A DNA stretch of 37,086 bases from a virus (lineage: Duplodnaviria; Heunggongvirae; Uroviricota; Caudoviricetes). The DNA lies in IMG/VR virus record IMGVR_UViG_2671180770_000020, positions 1-37,086 of that record; one strand, written 5' to 3'. Positions within the stretch are counted from its first letter, which is position 1. Every line of letters begins with the position of its first letter. The position numbers and the translations under genes were made by a program. Of the stretch, positions 2,829 through 33,848 are shown piece after piece. A model generated the notes under the pieces. That model was not told the DNA's origin and made no database searches. It saw only the letters and a program-made list of their open reading frames with translations.

Positions 2829-3124
2829 GCCGCGTCCCTCTGCCCATCAAGCTGATCAGCCAGATCCCAGCGGGCGATAATTGCCATTGCCTCGCGCCGG
2901 TAGGCATCCATTAGTTCTTCGAACTCAGGGCTGTCTTTAGCGGCCTCCAGTACTTCCTGGCGAACGCCTTTAACTGTTACAACGTCGAAAGTTGATGCCA
3001 GTTGATGAAGCCGGATACTCTCAATCAGTTCAACTTGTCGGTCATATAGCTGTTCTGACAGACGGTAGTCCTTGTCGAATGCCAGCATGATTTTTTGAAG
3101 ATTTTTCTGCTGATTAACGTTCAT
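2825..3124 (-). CDS. Hypothetical early protein
   Basis: ORF in the leftward operon; start chosen at ATG 3124 (GGGAGGG 7 nt upstream, and the upstream small ORF stops 2 nt before it). An in-frame ATG at 3139 is the alternative. Confidence 0.5.
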   Translation of the reverse strand: MNVNQQKNLQKIMLAFDKDYRLSEQLYDRQVELIESIRLHQLASTFDVVTVKGVRQEVLEAAKDSPEFEELMDAYRREAMAIIARWDLADQLDGQRDAA

Positions 3125-3126
3125 TA

Positions 3127-3279
3127 TCAGCCCTCCCATATCTCGTTATCGTTGGCCACATCGCGAGCTTCTTTGCTGACGAAAGCCCACTTAATGCCTT
3201 CCTGTAAGGTGCGGAACTTCCAGCTCATGAATCCGCATGCAGTAACGCAGTACCAACCGTTGATGATTTTCCACTGCAT
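3127..3279 (-). CDS. Small hypothetical protein (50 aa), first ORF of the leftward early operon
   Basis: Hand-translated ORF MQWKIINGWYCVTACGF...NEIWEG, stop TGA at 3127-3129 two nt before the next start; not in the ORF track because it is under 60 aa. Confidence 0.3.
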   Translation of the reverse strand: MQWKIINGWYCVTACGFMSWKFRTLQEGIKWAFVSKEARDVANDNEIWEG

Positions 3280-3298
3280 AACTTGTTACCTCGGTCTG

Positions 3299-3375
3299 TT
3301 ACCGTTGAGGTAATAATTATGCTTATTTGGTTTGGTGTCAATAGATATGAGTTAAAAAAATTACCCGTAAGGTAA
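3299..3375. promoter_or_regulatory. Left operator/promoter region: two perfect TTACC-N5-GGTAA palindromes (3299-3313, 3361-3375) bracketing a putative leftward promoter
   Basis: Minus-strand TTGACA at 3336-3341 with a TAATTA/AATTAT -10 candidate at about 3313-3319; one palindrome overlaps the -10, the other lies upstream of the -35. Confidence 0.55.
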
Positions 3376-3386
3376 TCTATCTGGCA

Positions 3387-3410
3387 ATAAAAAAGCCGCC
3401 ATGAGGCGGC
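3387..3410 (-). terminator. Intrinsic terminator after the repressor gene
   Basis: Minus-strand hairpin GCCGCC-loop-GGCGGC followed by a T-run (A-run 3387-3394 on the plus strand), 23 nt past the repressor stop. Confidence 0.6.
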
Positions 3411-3432
3411 TTACTTACTGAAAAATATAGTT

Positions 3433-4017
3433 TTATTGTTTGCTTTTTTCGTTCTGGTTGATGACAAATTCAATGTAACTTTCGATCTTTGCTTTCTCGG
3501 TTTCGGGTAACAATGCGTAGCGTGAGCGGTCATAGTTGATAGTCGCAGGGTCGTGCGGGTGAATCAGTAGTTCATATCCGTGACGCCCGAATGCGGATGC
3601 AACATTCTCCAGGGTGGAAATGGAAACGCTGACCTCATTGTTTAACAGGCGACTGATTGTCACCTGGGCGACGCCGGATGCGCGGTGAAGTTTTCCCTGC
3701 GTTGAAAGGTCGCGGCTTTCGCTCATCCAGCGTTCCAGGTTGTGAGCCGCCAGCTGACCAATGTCGCTTGGGCCGACAGGCTGAAAACCTTCCTGAGAAA
3801 GCGAGCGATCGATATCAAGCCAGTTACGGGGTTTATTGGCGGCAGCTTCAATTTTTCGCGCAACCTGGTCGCCGATAACCTTCTTGCCAAGAGCCCAGCG
3901 GTTTACCAGATTTGCCTGAGTTCCAAGTTTTTCTGCCATCCGCGTCTGAACACCATTGAATTCACGGTCGATCAAGTCGTTGAGATTTTGCCTGCGGACG
4001 TCCTGGATACTTTTCAT
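3433..4017 (-). CDS. Prophage repressor (CI-like) with HTH_XRE domain(s) and no S24/LexA-type peptidase domain
   Basis: 194 aa; N-terminal Cro/CI-type HTH (...QTRMAEKLGTQANLVNRWALGKK...); a second HTH-like segment (...VTISRLLNNEVSVSISTLENVASAFG...); no Ala-Gly cleavage site or Ser/Lys peptidase motif seen; divergent from the cro-like gene. Confidence 0.7.
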   Translation of the reverse strand: MKSIQDVRRQNLNDLIDREFNGVQTRMAEKLGTQANLVNRWALGKKVIGDQVARKIEAAANKPRNWLDIDRSLSQEGFQPVGPSDIGQLAAHNLERWMSESRDLSTQGKLHRASGVAQVTISRLLNNEVSVSISTLENVASAFGRHGYELLIHPHDPATINYDRSRYALLPETEKAKIESYIEFVINQNEKSKQ

Positions 4018-12436: not shown

Positions 12437-12515
12437 CGAACTGGAAGCAATGAGTTATGCCTTCCGTGGCTGTACTGGTTTACAGCATGAAGTCATCGCA
12501 ATGGCGTCCTGCTGT

Positions 12516-12600: not shown

Positions 12601-12677
12601 TGGCGTGGCATGCAGGATTCGAACCTGCGACCAACCGCTTAGAAGGCGGTTGCTCTGTCCAACTGAGCTAATGCCAC
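12601..12677 (-). tRNA. tRNA-Arg (anticodon UCU), 77 nt with encoded CCA
   Basis: Hand-folded cloverleaf: acceptor GUGGCAU/AUGCCAC, D-arm GCUC-AGUUGGACA-GAGC, anticodon arm ACCGC-CUUCUAA-GCGGU, variable loop UGGUC, T-arm GCAGG-UUCGAAU-CCUGC, discriminator G, CCA. Confidence 0.9.
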
Positions 12678-29678: not shown

Positions 29679-30314
29679 TTATTCTATTGGCAGCTTATGC
29701 TTTGAAATTATGGCCAATCTGTTTTGGAAGTTTTCCGCATCACCCCACAACCAGGTTTCACCTTTCTCAAGCTCTTCCTCGTTATTCATCTCTATCAGTT
29801 CGCATGTCATCATGTCGTAACCATAGAGGTGGAGGCCAAGTTCCAGTGCGTCATACATGCGAGCCTGCCAGAACGACATGCCTTCATGAGTCTGGTTGCG
29901 ATCAGACACGATGATATCGTACCGTTCCAAGAGGTAGTTCATGAAGATGATGCCGGCGAAATCATGAAGCACAGCACGATGCTTAGGCTTCTGGGTTCTC
30001 CATACCAATATCTGCGTGACAGGTCGGCAGTTAAGATAGCTGTCAGGCTGGATAATGACACGATTGTAATACACAACCTCTTCGGTGAGGTCATTTATCA
30101 GTGCCAGTTCAAAGTGCGCCTGTGGAATCTCGCCTTTCTTACGATCGTCTACACGGACAACGCGGTATCCAGGAGCCAGAGAAACGCCTTTGACATCAGA
30201 TGTGACATCGTTGCCGTTCACTAACTCTGAATACAGGGCGCGGTTGTCTGGAGTTTCGTTCAGATGAGCGAAAACCTCAGTTACCTTTGCCGGATTCAGC
30301 AGTTGTTGTGGCAT
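29679..30314 (-). CDS. Hypothetical cytoplasmic protein (211 aa) in the accessory island
   Basis: ATG 30314 with GAGGTGA upstream; no recognisable motif. Confidence 0.5.
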   Translation of the reverse strand: MPQQLLNPAKVTEVFAHLNETPDNRALYSELVNGNDVTSDVKGVSLAPGYRVVRVDDRKKGEIPQAHFELALINDLTEEVVYYNRVIIQPDSYLNCRPVTQILVWRTQKPKHRAVLHDFAGIIFMNYLLERYDIIVSDRNQTHEGMSFWQARMYDALELGLHLYGYDMMTCELIEMNNEEELEKGETWLWGDAENFQNRLAIISKHKLPIE

Positions 30315-30352: not shown

Positions 30353-30367
30353 TTACCCGTAAGGTAA
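30353..30367. promoter_or_regulatory. Perfect palindrome TTACCcgtaaGGTAA (identical 15-mer to the 3361-3375 copy)
   Basis: Between the antirepressor stop (with a downstream hairpin at 30409-30424) and the start of gene 29679-30314. Confidence 0.5.
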
Positions 30368-30432: not shown

Positions 30433-31083
30433 TCAGAAGAACCCTGCCTTGTCGTTGATGTATTCCGCGTGAGTCTGGATATCACGCAGGCATTTGCTCA
30501 CACCGACGATGTAGCAGAACATGGTGGTCAGCTCCGCCGCCGCGCCCGATACATCGTGCCCGTCTTCCTGTAACTGGTTCAGCAGATTCATCAGCAGTGA
30601 GTTCTCCGTCAGGCCGAGAACACCAGATGGGGAATGAATCAGACTGCGGTAGCCGGGCTTCAGCGGTGCACTGTATTCTTTTTTGTCTTCCAGCTTGATC
30701 GCCTCCATAATGGCTGGCATGAAGCCTGACAAGACCTTCTCCACTTTTGTTTCTTGTTGTCTTAAACGTTTCTCGCATTCAATGAAGTAGCGTCGCACCT
30801 GGCGACCTTTTTCGTTACGCTCGACCATCGCCAGCTCTTTGGCTGTATCGAGGGTGAGGTGGTAGTCTTTTGCAGGACGGCCTCTGCCTATTTTTTCCCG
30901 AACTTGGGAAATAATCATAAAGTCTTGATTTTCAACGAAACCATATTCAGCAATTCGTTCGACAATCCACGAAGCAAATCGCTTACCCACATCGAGGAAA
31001 GTGTGTAAATCACGGGCATTAACGAGAAGAGCGGTTTCGTTGGATATAGTGCCGTTGAATACGGGGATGAGTTGAGCGTTCAT
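30433..31083 (-). CDS. Antirepressor (AntA-type N-terminal domain)
   Basis: 216 aa; N-terminal ...LIPVFNGT...NARDLHTFLDVGKRFASWIVERIAEYGFVENQDFMI... matches the remembered AntA/AntB antirepressor domain; GGAG upstream of ATG 31083. Confidence 0.7.
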   Translation of the reverse strand: MNAQLIPVFNGTISNETALLVNARDLHTFLDVGKRFASWIVERIAEYGFVENQDFMIISQVREKIGRGRPAKDYHLTLDTAKELAMVERNEKGRQVRRYFIECEKRLRQQETKVEKVLSGFMPAIMEAIKLEDKKEYSAPLKPGYRSLIHSPSGVLGLTENSLLMNLLNQLQEDGHDVSGAAAELTTMFCYIVGVSKCLRDIQTHAEYINDKAGFF

Positions 31084-31240
31084 TATGGCGTCTCCACTTA
31101 GCGAATTACATCACCACCGCTGAGACCAATCAGATGGTGGTGAACTGAACGGAGTTGGTCTTACCGGCCTAAGTGGTACCGGCGTCCTTTCGGACCCCCA
31201 TTCAGCCCACCATAATTCTGGCATGACTGTGCTATACGCA

Positions 31241-31263
31241 TAAAAAAACCACGTCTGGCGTGG
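31241..31263 (-). terminator. Intrinsic terminator between the small Ant-like gene and the antirepressor gene
   Basis: Minus strand CCACG-ccaga-CGTGG followed by TTTTTTTAT. Confidence 0.45.
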
Positions 31264-31354
31264 TATGCGCCACTTAGTAATCCGGGAGACCAATCCCGGC
31301 ACTGGATTTTGCCAGTGCCCGATTACTATGGCACAAGAGGAGTGCGATGTAAAT

Positions 31355-31369
31355 TTACCGCAAAGGTAA
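31355..31369. promoter_or_regulatory. Perfect palindrome TTACCgcaaaGGTAA in the leader upstream of the antirepressor gene
   Basis: Followed by the near-palindrome GGTAATTACA at about 31389-31398. Confidence 0.45.
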
Positions 31370-31400
31370 ATATAAGCACTCCGCTTGGTAATTACAAACC

Positions 31401-31658
31401 TTATCTGGTTTGTTTTCGTAATTGTTCGGCACAATAGTCGAGATGTGTTTGCAGATCCTGCATAGACATCTGTGAGCTGGTGACGTAGTTAATCAGTGCA
31501 GTCAGTTCGGCAAGTGGGCCATCGACATTAAATCCATCCTTATCGAGATCCCGGAGTAATTTCATCAAGTGCGATCCCTCCACCAGTGACCTGACGCCTC
31601 CCGGCGTGTGAATCCTTTCGGTAAATCCCTCTTCCAGTGGATAGTGATACTGCTGCAT
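31401..31658 (-). CDS. Small protein (85 aa) paralogous to the C-terminal domain of the adjacent antirepressor; LexA-box-associated
   Basis: MQQYHYPLEEGFTERIHTPGGVRSLVEGSHLMKLLRDLDKDGFNVDGPLAELTALINY...DLQTHLDY aligns by eye with antirepressor residues about 130-205 (...YSAPLKPGYRSLIHSPSGVLGLTENSLLMNLLNQLQEDGHDVSGAAAELTTMF...DIQTHAEY); GGAGAAG upstream of ATG 31658. Confidence 0.6.
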   Translation of the reverse strand: MQQYHYPLEEGFTERIHTPGGVRSLVEGSHLMKLLRDLDKDGFNVDGPLAELTALINYVTSSQMSMQDLQTHLDYCAEQLRKQTR

Positions 31659-31679
31659 CTTATCTTCTCCATGCAATAA

Positions 31680-31695
31680 CTGTATAAATATACAG
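31680..31695. promoter_or_regulatory. LexA (SOS) box CTGT-N8-ACAG
   Basis: aaCTGTATAAATATACAGta at 31678-31697, a near-consensus match to TACTGTATATATATACAGTA, 22-37 nt upstream of the small Ant-like gene start on the transcribed side. Confidence 0.7.
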
Positions 31696-31734
31696 TAGCA
31701 AATAATTTGTTTGCTATCCAGCACGTTTTGCGAA

Positions 31735-31749
31735 TCACCTGAAAGGTAA
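31735..31749. promoter_or_regulatory. Near-perfect palindrome copy (tCACCtgaaaGGTAA) upstream of the LexA box
   Basis: About 40 bp beyond the LexA box in the divergent intergenic region shared with the tail fiber gene. Confidence 0.4.
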
Positions 31750-31853: not shown

Positions 31854-33848
31854 ATGACGGTCTCAACCGAAGTTGACCACAACGAATATACAGGTAACGG
31901 TGTTACAACTACGTTCCCTTATACCTTTAGGATTTTCCAGAAATCTGATCTGGTGGTGCAGGTGATTGACCTTGACGAGAATATCACTGTGCTGGCTCTT
32001 GATACTGATTACGCAGTCACTGGTGCGGGAGGCTATAGAGGCGGTAATATAATACTGTCGAAGGCATTGGCCAACGGTTATCAGATCTCTATATCACGAG
32101 AGCTCCCGGTTACTCAGGAAACAGATCTGCGTAATCAGGGTAAATTCTTTGCAGAGGTGCATGAGGATGCGTTTGATAAGCTAACGATGCTGATTCAACA
32201 ATGTCGTAGCTTGTTTCGTCTTGCACTTTGCAAGCCATCAAGTATTGCAAACTGGTACGACGCTTTAAATAACAGGATTAGAAATCTTAAAGATCCAGAA
32301 AGCCCTCAGGATGCAGTAACTTTAAGTTATCTTGAAGGGTATATAGAAGGTGGTGATAGTACTTTGCGTCCAGATATTACAAGAACTGGAGCTGTAGGGA
32401 ATAATATACAGCAAGCCATAAACTTATCTATAGCCGGTCAAACTGTAATTACGATGAAAGATGATGAAATTGTATCTTCATTGTTAAATGAATATGGTGT
32501 TGAAATTGAGCAACGCAGGGGGCGTGTATTTAATACAGAAGGTGTTCAACTAACAACGTATTCTGACCCTCGTTCCCGTTTTGTAACTGGTGACCAATAT
32601 CTTAATTATGTTATTAGCAAGATGATAAAAGCAGATGGCGTGGATAAATCACAGAAAACATATATTTTGTGGTCTGGTGACTCCACGATTGTTGGTGTTA
32701 ACTCTGAATTATGGCCACCAGCAACTATTGCTGATTTTTATGCAAAAAGGTATGGAATTATTGATGTAAAAAATACATCGTTAGGTCATTCAGGTAAAAC
32801 TCTATACGAATGGGGTAATTGGTATATTGATCAGGAATGGTCTGTTTTTTCTGCTGCTGATTTGATTGTTTTACGCTGGGGAATTAACGATCCATATTAT
32901 GGTTATACATTGGATCAAGTAAAAGACGCATTAGATAGAGGCCTTTCCAAGTTACGAAATAACAAATCAGTTTCCCAGCAATCAATTATTATCATGTCCC
33001 CAAACTCAACATCAGACACACCAAACGGACGTGATGAAAAATGGTATGAACAGTTAACAGCCGTACTTAGAGCCAAAGCAAAACAATATAAGTGTATGTT
33101 TTTTGATACTTACGGTATGTGGCAGGATTCGCGAGGATCTGCTGGTAACTGGCTTGACGACCCTTATGGCGATGGCAGGGGAATACACCCAAACTCAACA
33201 TTTAGCGCACAGATACATAAATTATTATTTGAATATATTTATGGACCGTGTGCTGTTATAAATGGGAGTAGCAACCTTTTTTCTAACAATGGTTCTTCCA
33301 TACAATTCATCAATAGCTCATATCCGCCAAATACTTTTCACATGGGGACTTCATGGTGGAGAACAAACCCTGATGATGCTTCTTGGCCTCTTGACGGTGT
33401 TATTCAGGTTGATAGATTTGTTGACGGAATAGTAGTACAAAAAAATTATGGTTATTCTTCAGATAATGCTCGCGTTTGCTTAATGAGGATTGGAAGGATT
33501 AGTGAGAATACATGGAGTACATGGCGAGGTAATCAGTATGATATGAGTGGCATATTGCAAAATGGTTGGTCTGTAGGTGAGGCAAGAAGTGGAACATATC
33601 AGAAATCAGCCGAGGGCGTTGTTACTTTATCTGCTGTTTTAACAGGTGGAAATACATCTGTTGGCACAGTTATTATGGTATTGCCAGAAGGGTTTAGACC
33701 AAAGAATGATATTTCTTATATTCCATCAGGTACTGATTCATCGGTTGCCCTCATTAATATACTTTCAAACGGTAAAGTTACAATTCAGAGCTATCCGTCA
33801 GGAACAGTTCTTGTAATTAATACGACATTCCCTTCATTAGTTAATTAG
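31854..33848 (+). CDS. Tail fiber/tailspike with C-terminal SGNH/GDSL-type esterase domain
   Basis: 664 aa; N-terminal virion-anchoring-like segment (MTVSTEVDHNEYTGNGVTTTFPYTF...); GDS(L)-like motif ...ILWSGDSTIVG... and downstream ...DGRGIHPN... (Asp/His catalytic-type motif); C-terminal two-thirds is clearly more AT-rich than the N-terminus. Confidence 0.7.
   Translation: MTVSTEVDHNEYTGNGVTTTFPYTFRIFQKSDLVVQVIDLDENITVLALDTDYAVTGAGGYRGGNIILSKALANGYQISISRELPVTQETDLRNQGKFFAEVHEDAFDKLTMLIQQCRSLFRLALCKPSSIANWYDALNNRIRNLKDPESPQDAVTLSYLEGYIEGGDSTLRPDITRTGAVGNNIQQAINLSIAGQTVITMKDDEIVSSLLNEYGVEIEQRRGRVFNTEGVQLTTYSDPRSRFVTGDQYLNYVISKMIKADGVDKSQKTYILWSGDSTIVGVNSELWPPATIADFYAKRYGIIDVKNTSLGHSGKTLYEWGNWYIDQEWSVFSAADLIVLRWGINDPYYGYTLDQVKDALDRGLSKLRNNKSVSQQSIIIMSPNSTSDTPNGRDEKWYEQLTAVLRAKAKQYKCMFFDTYGMWQDSRGSAGNWLDDPYGDGRGIHPNSTFSAQIHKLLFEYIYGPCAVINGSSNLFSNNGSSIQFINSSYPPNTFHMGTSWWRTNPDDASWPLDGVIQVDRFVDGIVVQKNYGYSSDNARVCLMRIGRISENTWSTWRGNQYDMSGILQNGWSVGEARSGTYQKSAEGVVTLSAVLTGGNTSVGTVIMVLPEGFRPKNDISYIPSGTDSSVALINILSNGKVTIQSYPSGTVLVINTTFPSLVN

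Follow-up and report, generated by a model that had tools for sequence, protein, structure and literature searches.

The DNA analysed here (the window) is a stretch of 37,086 nucleotides (nt), IMG/VR record IMGVR_UViG_2671180770_000020, which represents a near-complete Escherichia coli phage of the epsilon15/phiV10-like kind (Uetakevirus), from a group of temperate podoviruses. Of interest is an antirepressor module on the minus strand, with the ejection-protein operon (end at about 29,600) on one side and the tailspike gene (31854-33848), transcribed divergently, on the other. The closest BLAST match of this region is Escherichia phage phiv142-3 (coverage 97%, identity 93%), with partial matches to phiV10, TL-2011b, vB_EcoP_ZX5 and further members of the genus. 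Parts of the region are matched by 898 of 5,426 complete E. coli genomes, and 74 of these cover at least 80% of it. The module is likely an accessory immunity (antirepressor) region that holds two antirepressor units, both on the minus strand: a lytic switch of the type found in Salmonella phage SPC32H, and a cassette that resembles the RNA-controlled antirepressor loci of P1 and Gifsy-1. The units, genes and protein domains are as follows.

31401-31720, minus strand: unit 1, candidate SPC32H-type lytic switch
30433-31369, minus strand: unit 2, candidate cassette of the P1 immI / Gifsy-1 isrK-anrP type
31401-31658, minus strand: small antirepressor Ant, 85 amino acids, SPC32H type, with the Shine-Dalgarno sequence GGAG at 31664-31670
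30433-31083, minus strand: large antirepressor, 216 amino acids, AntA N-terminal domain and SPC32H-Ant-like C-terminal domain
30814-31023, minus strand: AntA domain of the large protein, residues 21-90 (PF08346, 97.2 bits, cut-off 27)
30451-30681, minus strand: Ant-like C-terminal domain of the large protein
3433-4017, minus strand: repressor Rep, 194 amino acids, helix-turn-helix domains without a peptidase domain

The open reading frame list extends the small ant gene to a GTG at 31724 (107 amino acids). The ATG at 31658 was taken as the start, because the crystallised homologue has 86 amino acids and the alignment begins at this ATG. That homologue is the 'Anti-repressor protein', chain E of PDB 5D50, with which residues 2-84 of the small Ant align over residues 3-85 (phmmer, E=1.6e-47); the PDB entry represents the Rep-Ant complex of SPC32H, itself a Uetakevirus. 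With the annotated ant product of SPC32H the small Ant shares 89% identity (tblastn); it also matches phrog_450 (1e-47), and a Pfam search assigned it to no family. In the SPC32H GenBank record the homologous gene is annotated ant and has the same genomic position. These comparisons support a role of the 85-amino acid protein as the repressor-binding antirepressor, by analogy with the homologue already characterised in SPC32H, where it was co-crystallised with the repressor.

An earlier note on this DNA had proposed that role, and also, as a second option, that the small protein is a decoy. Could it modulate the large protein, e.g. through mixed oligomers, so that induction would really be due to the latter? 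A shared domain (40% identity) and the tetrameric state of SPC32H Ant (PMC9638917) make mixed oligomers conceivable. However, many relatives have the small gene only; in SPC32H, epsilon15, BUCT554 and PAS61 the large gene is absent. The small Ant of SPC32H binds Rep in the crystal, and the two paralogue clades are merely 37-44% identical. A decoy function is thus very improbable. Another statement of the note, that a stand-alone C-terminal domain protein is unusual, has to be reversed: the stand-alone form is the canonical one, and it is the fused 216-amino acid copy that has been less described.

Rep, the presumed target of both antirepressors, matches the 'Repressor' of the same structure (PDB 5D50 chain A, residues 1-190, E=3.5e-42). 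The Pfam search returned HTH_3 and a sub-threshold N-terminal match of the YdaS type only, with no Peptidase_S24, which bears out the earlier claim of a repressor that has no autocleavage domain. Rep of the window is 99.5% identical to the repressor of phage ZX5, overexpression of which blocks lytic growth (PMC9782041); its identity to Rep of SPC32H is 42.7%. A tblastn search of 50,697 phage records found Rep in 36, the small Ant in 35 and the fused C-terminal domain in 34, in each case within the same Uetakevirus-like set.

The region upstream of the small gene carries three motifs.

31678-31697, no strand assigned: LexA (SOS) box AACTGTATAAATATACAGTA, two mismatches to the E. coli LexA consensus TACTGTATATATATACAGTA
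31692-31720, minus strand: predicted ant promoter, -35 TGGATA (31715-31720), 17-nt spacer, -10 TACTGT (31692-31697, inside the SOS box)
31735-31749, no strand assigned: predicted Rep operator TCACCTGAAAGGTAA, with a single departure from TTACC-N5-GGTAA, flanked by the ant and tailspike promoters, which are divergent

When up to three mismatches are allowed, the window contains no match to the LexA consensus other than this box (0.00 expected from shuffles). Its core lies 22-37 nt upstream of ATG 31658, which follows GGAG; here box and gene are placed as had been described before. The looser pattern CTGT-N8-ACAG occurs three times, compared with 0.44 expected; the other two occurrences, at 12470 and 17013, have GC-rich centres and are regarded as chance. 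At the ant gene the pattern is kept in 77 of 78 related IMG/VR loci. These loci come from the best 80 that were retained and are near-identical E. coli loci, so that deeper divergence was taken from GenBank phage records. Among the latter the position of the box is common to phages of E. coli, Salmonella and Enterobacter. Three Klebsiella relatives (L168, L169 and L170) have the same layout, with a one-mismatch box, ATGT-N8-ACAG, approx. 30-45 nt upstream of the small ant gene. A chance palindrome, with the small gene outside LexA control, is hardly credible in view of the expected count, the conserved position and a point mutation found in the homologous box of phage SPC32N.

The ant promoter was missed by a consensus promoter scan of the window, its hexamers being weak. 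Its position, as read from the letters, is nevertheless conserved: both hexamers are kept in the alignment with SPC32H, epsilon15, phiV10, phiv142-3, Tyrion and BUCT554. The order ATTACC-N5-GGTAAT, 14 nt, TGGATA, 17 nt, TACTGT (within the SOS box), GGAG and ATG is collinear in the window, phiV10, phiv142-3, PAS61, SPC32H, epsilon15, Tyrion and BUCT554. The alignment with SPC32H extends base for base over box, promoter and ribosome-binding site, and the SPC32H box is collinear with the one that overlaps the predicted promoter hexamers here.

SPC32H and SPC32N differ by two bases in the 5.2-kb locus (locus positions 2284 and 2471). One is a C-to-A change in the SOS box before ant, within its ACAG half. 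The SPC32H repressor is said to remain uncleaved during the SOS response, and Ant, expressed from a promoter that overlaps the LexA site, reportedly inactivates it. A point mutation in the LexA box is likewise said to result in constitutive Ant and the virulent phage SPC32N; the C-to-A change in the half-site fits this account. The second difference between the two phages falls 13 nt into the tailspike coding sequence.

Prophage induction by LexA derepression of an antirepressor, which had been suggested for this locus and is already known for SPC32H, is well supported by the sequence, i.e. by an Ant that is 89% identical and a collinear regulatory region. In ZX5, a related Uetakevirus, mitomycin C lifts the titre from 1e7 to 1e9 plaque-forming units/mL (PMC9782041).

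The near-palindrome at 31735-31749, noticed earlier as a possible second regulatory input, proved to be one of 14 sites in the window.

3299, 3361, 4073, 4121, 4458, 6404, 6466, 9432, 9450, 12383, 13001, 30353, 31355 and 31735: TTACC-N5-GGTAA 15-mers, predicted Rep operators

The expected number is 0.66, and the sites are found mostly ahead of operons. Those of the early promoters next to the repressor gene overlap the -35 or the -10. The epsilon15 GenBank record annotates seven sites of the same motif as 'protein_bind repressor lysogeny', and one of these, upstream of the small ant homologue gp19, is positioned as the site at 31735-31749. From the distribution of the motif, control by Rep appears to be spread across the genome, as with the C1 operators of P1. 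Some operators are paired, with spacings of 62 base pairs (bp) (3299/3361 and 6404/6466), 48 bp (4073/4121) and 18 bp (9432/9450), and the pairing may be related to tetrameric Rep binding. Of the 78 IMG/VR loci, 77 retain the operator at 31735-31749, which is also conserved over four host genera. A distance of 14 nt separates it from the probable -35 of ant, and because it is upstream of both this -35 and a probable tailspike promoter, it may or may not act on ant.

The small gene is upstream of the large one, as the earlier note had it, but the two are not directly adjacent: a gap of 317 nt separates them, with a predicted promoter, the small RNA IsrK with its terminator, and the antisense RNA C4, none of which the note had mentioned.

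31355-31369, no strand assigned: predicted Rep operator TTACCGCAAAGGTAA, whose end is 1 nt upstream of the isrK -35
31325-31353, minus strand: predicted isrK promoter, TTTACA, 17-nt spacer, TG-CATAGT, start at about 31318
31242-31318, minus strand: IsrK small RNA (Rfam RF01394, 67.7 bits, gathering score 50)
31287-31293 and 31270-31277, minus strand: IsrK decoy sites a1 and b1, respectively
31264-31248, minus strand: stem of the predicted IsrK intrinsic terminator, with a T-run
31133-31217, minus strand: C4 antisense RNA (Rfam RF01695, 61.2 bits, gathering score 45)
31169-31176 and 31155-31161, minus strand: C4 loops b' (CCACUUAG) and a' (AGACCAA), respectively
31084-31132, minus strand: leader of the large ant gene, with the C4 target sites a2 (31123-31129) and b2 (31094-31101)

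The predicted start of isrK coincides with position 1 of the Rfam isrK model, and C4 lies 50 nt upstream of the AntA-domain gene. Two stretches in C4, the 8-nt CCACUUAG and the 7-nt AGACCAA, are each perfectly complemented twice, once in IsrK and once in the leader of the large ant gene; in this leader site b2 overlaps the Shine-Dalgarno sequence GGAG (31090-31095). In 32 distinct modules from phage records and IMG/VR contigs the b stretch comes in four types and the a stretch also in four; at least eight combinations of them occur, and in all 32 modules the C4 stretches are exactly complemented in the leader. The IsrK sites are also complementary across these modules, except for the b1 variant CUACAGAGG, which forms one G-U wobble with b'. 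The loop types were obtained by anchor-based extraction; MAFFT columns were unusable, the register of the short loops being shifted between types. Complementarity and covariation are seen here, and the direction of regulation would follow that in P1 and Gifsy-1. In phiV10, Tyrion, the Klebsiella phage ST512phi13.3 and the window, the operator at 31355-31369 has conserved half-sites around an N5 that varies.

No terminator is predicted in the window between the small ant gene and isrK. In cassette-free relatives a GC-rich hairpin directly follows ant. A minority of E. coli relatives (L045, 2781-3509 on the minus strand; L037, L042, L051, L055, L060 and L084) has a 242-amino acid open reading frame on the opposite strand between small ant and isrK, with a cysteine-rich C-terminus and a weak Stc1 match below the cut-off. 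Tandem cassettes had been suspected where isrK sits approx. 830 nt further downstream, and were ruled out, as it is this unrelated reading frame that is found there. In the Klebsiella phage ST512-KPC3phi13.3 an unrelated 85-amino acid reading frame lies in the same gap.

The large protein is of the AntA type, as proposed before (PF08346, with the score given above), and, again as proposed, the small protein aligns with its C-terminal domain: pairwise BLASTP gives 40% identity over 78 residues, residues 135-212 of the large protein, with E=3e-16. Residues 135-211 also match PDB 5D50 chain E directly (E=5.4e-14). Every position that is invariant in the small-Ant family is kept in the fused domain. 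The fused domain is 93-100% identical among E. coli phages across differing N-terminal domains, which are AntA in the window and phiv142-3, BRO-N in phiV10, ZX5 and TL-2011b, and ORF6N in others. Identity is 58-89% within the small Ants and 53-76% within the fused C-terminal domains, lower between the groups, and since the two form separate clades, the fusion is old and both copies were retained. Overexpression of the BRO-N version in ZX5 reduces lysogens approx. 1000-fold (PMC9782041); its C-terminal domain is 96% identical to that of the window. Neither the small gene nor the SOS box nor the RNAs are mentioned in the ZX5 study. Most likely, we infer from these sequence relationships, the C-terminal domain directs the large protein to Rep and provides a second, RNA-gated route of antirepression.

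The annotation of the large gene varies among relatives. In phiV10 it is annotated as two open reading frames (PhiV10p23 and p22), and the match to the C-terminal domain falls in two pieces (phiV10 locus 3012-3691), which points to a sequencing error or to a frameshift by which the Ant-like domain is cut short. In ST512-KPC3phi13.3 the annotated large Ant has 151 amino acids only, its N-terminal domain being apparently truncated.

Alternatively, the large antirepressor might act at infection or on other prophages (anti-immunity or cross-talk, as with P22 Ant and Fels-1 FsoA) instead of in SOS induction of its own prophage, the exchangeable N-terminal domain doing the targeting while the C-terminal domain only tetramerises. 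Trans-acting antirepressors are known in Salmonella (PMC3121763), and several features of the locus agree with such a role. Many Stx phages and other lambdoid ones share the AntA part at approx. 80% nucleotide identity, the N-terminal domains are swapped (AntA, BRO-N, ORF6N), and the promoter and RNA control of the cassette are independent of LexA. An opposite-strand gene parts the cassette from the small ant gene in some relatives, and the cassette is dispensable in SPC32H, epsilon15, PAS61 and BUCT554. Set against this are the confinement of the C-terminal domain to phages of the Rep family and its retention while N-terminal domains change, the conservation in it of all invariant small-Ant residues, and the observation that overexpression of the BRO-N version turns ZX5 itself from lysogeny (PMC9782041). 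Action at infection or on other prophages is the less likely, though not a remote, alternative.

There are further points that weigh against reading the region as two units directed at Rep. The small Ant is 89% identical between the E. coli and Salmonella phages and Rep approx. 43%; as Ant sequence does not simply track Rep, the case for the C-terminal domain as determinant of Rep specificity is weakened, and the fused domain could serve for oligomerisation only. The operator at 31355-31369 is located at about -37 to -51 of the isrK promoter, whereas those of the early promoters overlap core elements, and repression, activation or no effect of Rep at this site are all possible. A conserved coupling reading frame like orf45 or icd is absent: the only open reading frame over C4 stops 27 nt before the ATG of the large ant gene, its frame is not conserved between module types, and there is no stop that overlaps the large ant start (AUGA type). 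LexA binding, Ant-Rep binding and the action of C4 would all be properties transferred from homologues.

How might the two units operate? In a lysogen, LexA on the box that overlaps the -10 would keep the small ant gene off. The large ant gene would be silent through the Rep operator at the cassette promoter, the IsrK terminator, which would stop most transcripts, and C4 over the ribosome-binding site. Upon DNA damage LexA would disappear and the 85-amino acid Ant accumulate; it would bind the non-cleavable Rep and free the ATTACC-N5-GGTAAT operators, whereby lytic promoters would fire and the prophage be induced. For this first unit the sequence features are those seen here, and the biochemistry would be that of the SPC32H homologue. 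In the second unit the isrK promoter would yield IsrK, mostly ending at the terminator, and read-through would yield C4 and the large ant mRNA. Loops a' and b' of C4 would pair with a2 and b2 of the leader, and with b2 covered, together with the ribosome-binding site, translation would be blocked. Sites a1 and b1 of IsrK, which are identical to the leader sites, would compete for C4 and relieve the block. Unit 2 might then either reinforce induction or serve at infection.

Could the units form one feed-forward switch, in which SOS transcripts sponge C4 and unlock the second antirepressor? SOS transcripts may run into IsrK and carry a1 and b1, as the stretch from the small ant gene to isrK has no predicted terminator. 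These transcripts, together with a burst from the isrK promoter after inactivation of Rep, would soak up C4. The small Ant would act first; the fused paralogue, which has the Rep-binding domain in common with it and might even join it in one assembly, would then commit the phage. Such coupling of ant and isrK transcripts is not general, because some relatives have the opposite-strand gene inserted there, and a single feed-forward switch is rather doubtful. If it were true, the many a/b specificity types would make the second lock phage-specific.

Several known systems resemble parts of the region. The nearest is the Rep-Ant switch of SPC32H (PDB 5D50 and 5D4Z), with a homologous small Ant and a homologous Rep that also lacks a peptidase domain, the same order of operator, promoter, SOS box and Shine-Dalgarno sequence, and an ant gene likewise between ejection-protein genes and a divergent tailspike gene. 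It differs in that the small ant gene stands alone there and is followed by a terminator hairpin, whereas in the window the IsrK-C4-large Ant cassette and one more gene follow downstream; Rep, at 42.7% identity, has also diverged.

In the immI region of P1 and P7, the c4 antisense RNA, icd and ant are found (Citron & Schuster 1990, as cited in PMC7313666). The window shares with it an RNA of the C4 family, whose loops a' and b' are complementary to upstream a1/b1 and downstream a2/b2 sites, downstream sites that cover the ribosome-binding site before an antirepressor gene, and specificity types that co-vary. Unlike in P1, the target in the window is the ribosome-binding site of ant itself and not that of an icd-like reading frame, the upstream sites reside in a separately terminated small RNA (IsrK), and antirepressor and repressor are unrelated to P1 Ant and C1. 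In APSE phages a c4 whose a' and b' stretches pair has been noted ahead of a BRO-N gene (PMC7313666).

The Gifsy-1 locus isrK-orf45-anrP-isrJ is also similar. There, IsrK in trans raises translation of AnrP 139-fold, and processing of the sequence that follows IsrK yields a stable RNA of approx. 80 nt (Hershko-Shalev et al. 2016, PMC4825925). Common to both are an IsrK with its own promoter and a leaky terminator, followed by a stable RNA of approx. 80 nt and an antirepressor gene, and the pairing of IsrK with the downstream region. In the window, by contrast, there is no isrJ match and no conserved orf45 whose stop would overlap the start of ant; the antirepressor has another C-terminal domain, and the cassette follows directly on a LexA-controlled ant gene.

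Small antirepressors under LexA control include GfoA, GfhA and GftA of the Gifsy phages, Tum of 186 and AntC of N15 (PMC3121763). As in the window, the repressor is non-cleavable and the antirepressor gene is outside the immunity region under direct control of LexA; the operon content of the Gifsy antirepressors (dinI-gfoA-irsA) is different. A link of the small Ant to GfoA or Tum was sought and not retained: tblastn (E up to 1e-3) matched 35 records, all Uetakevirus-like, in a collection that may lack some Gifsy records.

The immI region of P22 comprises mnt, arc, ant and the sar RNA, with the Mnt and Arc proteins and sar RNA as regulators. It offers a positional and functional analogy, i.e. 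an antirepressor region controlled by antisense RNA between ejection-protein and tailspike genes of a temperate podovirus. It is unlike the window in its Mnt/Arc/sar regulators, in being free of LexA control and in an unrelated Ant.

The LexA-Ant-Rep switch of unit 1 is thus already known and only extends the solved Salmonella system to a widespread group of E. coli prophages, and unit 2 is a member of the known RNA-controlled antirepressor cassettes. In the searchable literature no description was found of both units juxtaposed, or of a lineage-restricted domain common to stand-alone and fused antirepressors. One repressor family is apparently targeted by two paralogous antirepressor domains, one under host SOS input and the other under a phage antisense-RNA lock. 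The region constitutes a compact natural system for asking how DNA-damage and RNA-based immunity signals combine in prophage induction, how antirepressor domains shuffle, and whether related co-resident prophages cross-induce.

A PADLOC scan for defence systems gave no match for the two antirepressors or the neighbouring open reading frames. Downstream of the large ant gene a reading frame of 211 amino acids (29679-30314, minus strand; phrog_1349, without a Pfam or PADLOC match) has its own upstream region, with the operator at 30353-30367, and a terminator (29672-29654). It is absent from phiv142-3, where three small open reading frames take its place, and it appears to be a moron occupying a variable slot. 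Variant modules are found in complete E. coli genomes (e.g. NZ_CP196255.1, NZ_CP098870.1 and NZ_CP117008.1), with an ORF6N N-terminus on the large protein or an inserted gene for a YafO-family toxin. The antirepressor slot is a hotspot for the exchange of cargo and domains.

Elsewhere in the window, a tRNA-Arg(tct) gene (12601-12677, minus strand) lies beside a minus-strand open reading frame of 306 amino acids without a Pfam match, both within the segment 11530-12677. In phiv142-3 the tRNA-Arg(tct) gene that follows the terminase genes shares their strand, and because of this difference in strand the segment has apparently been inverted or replaced.

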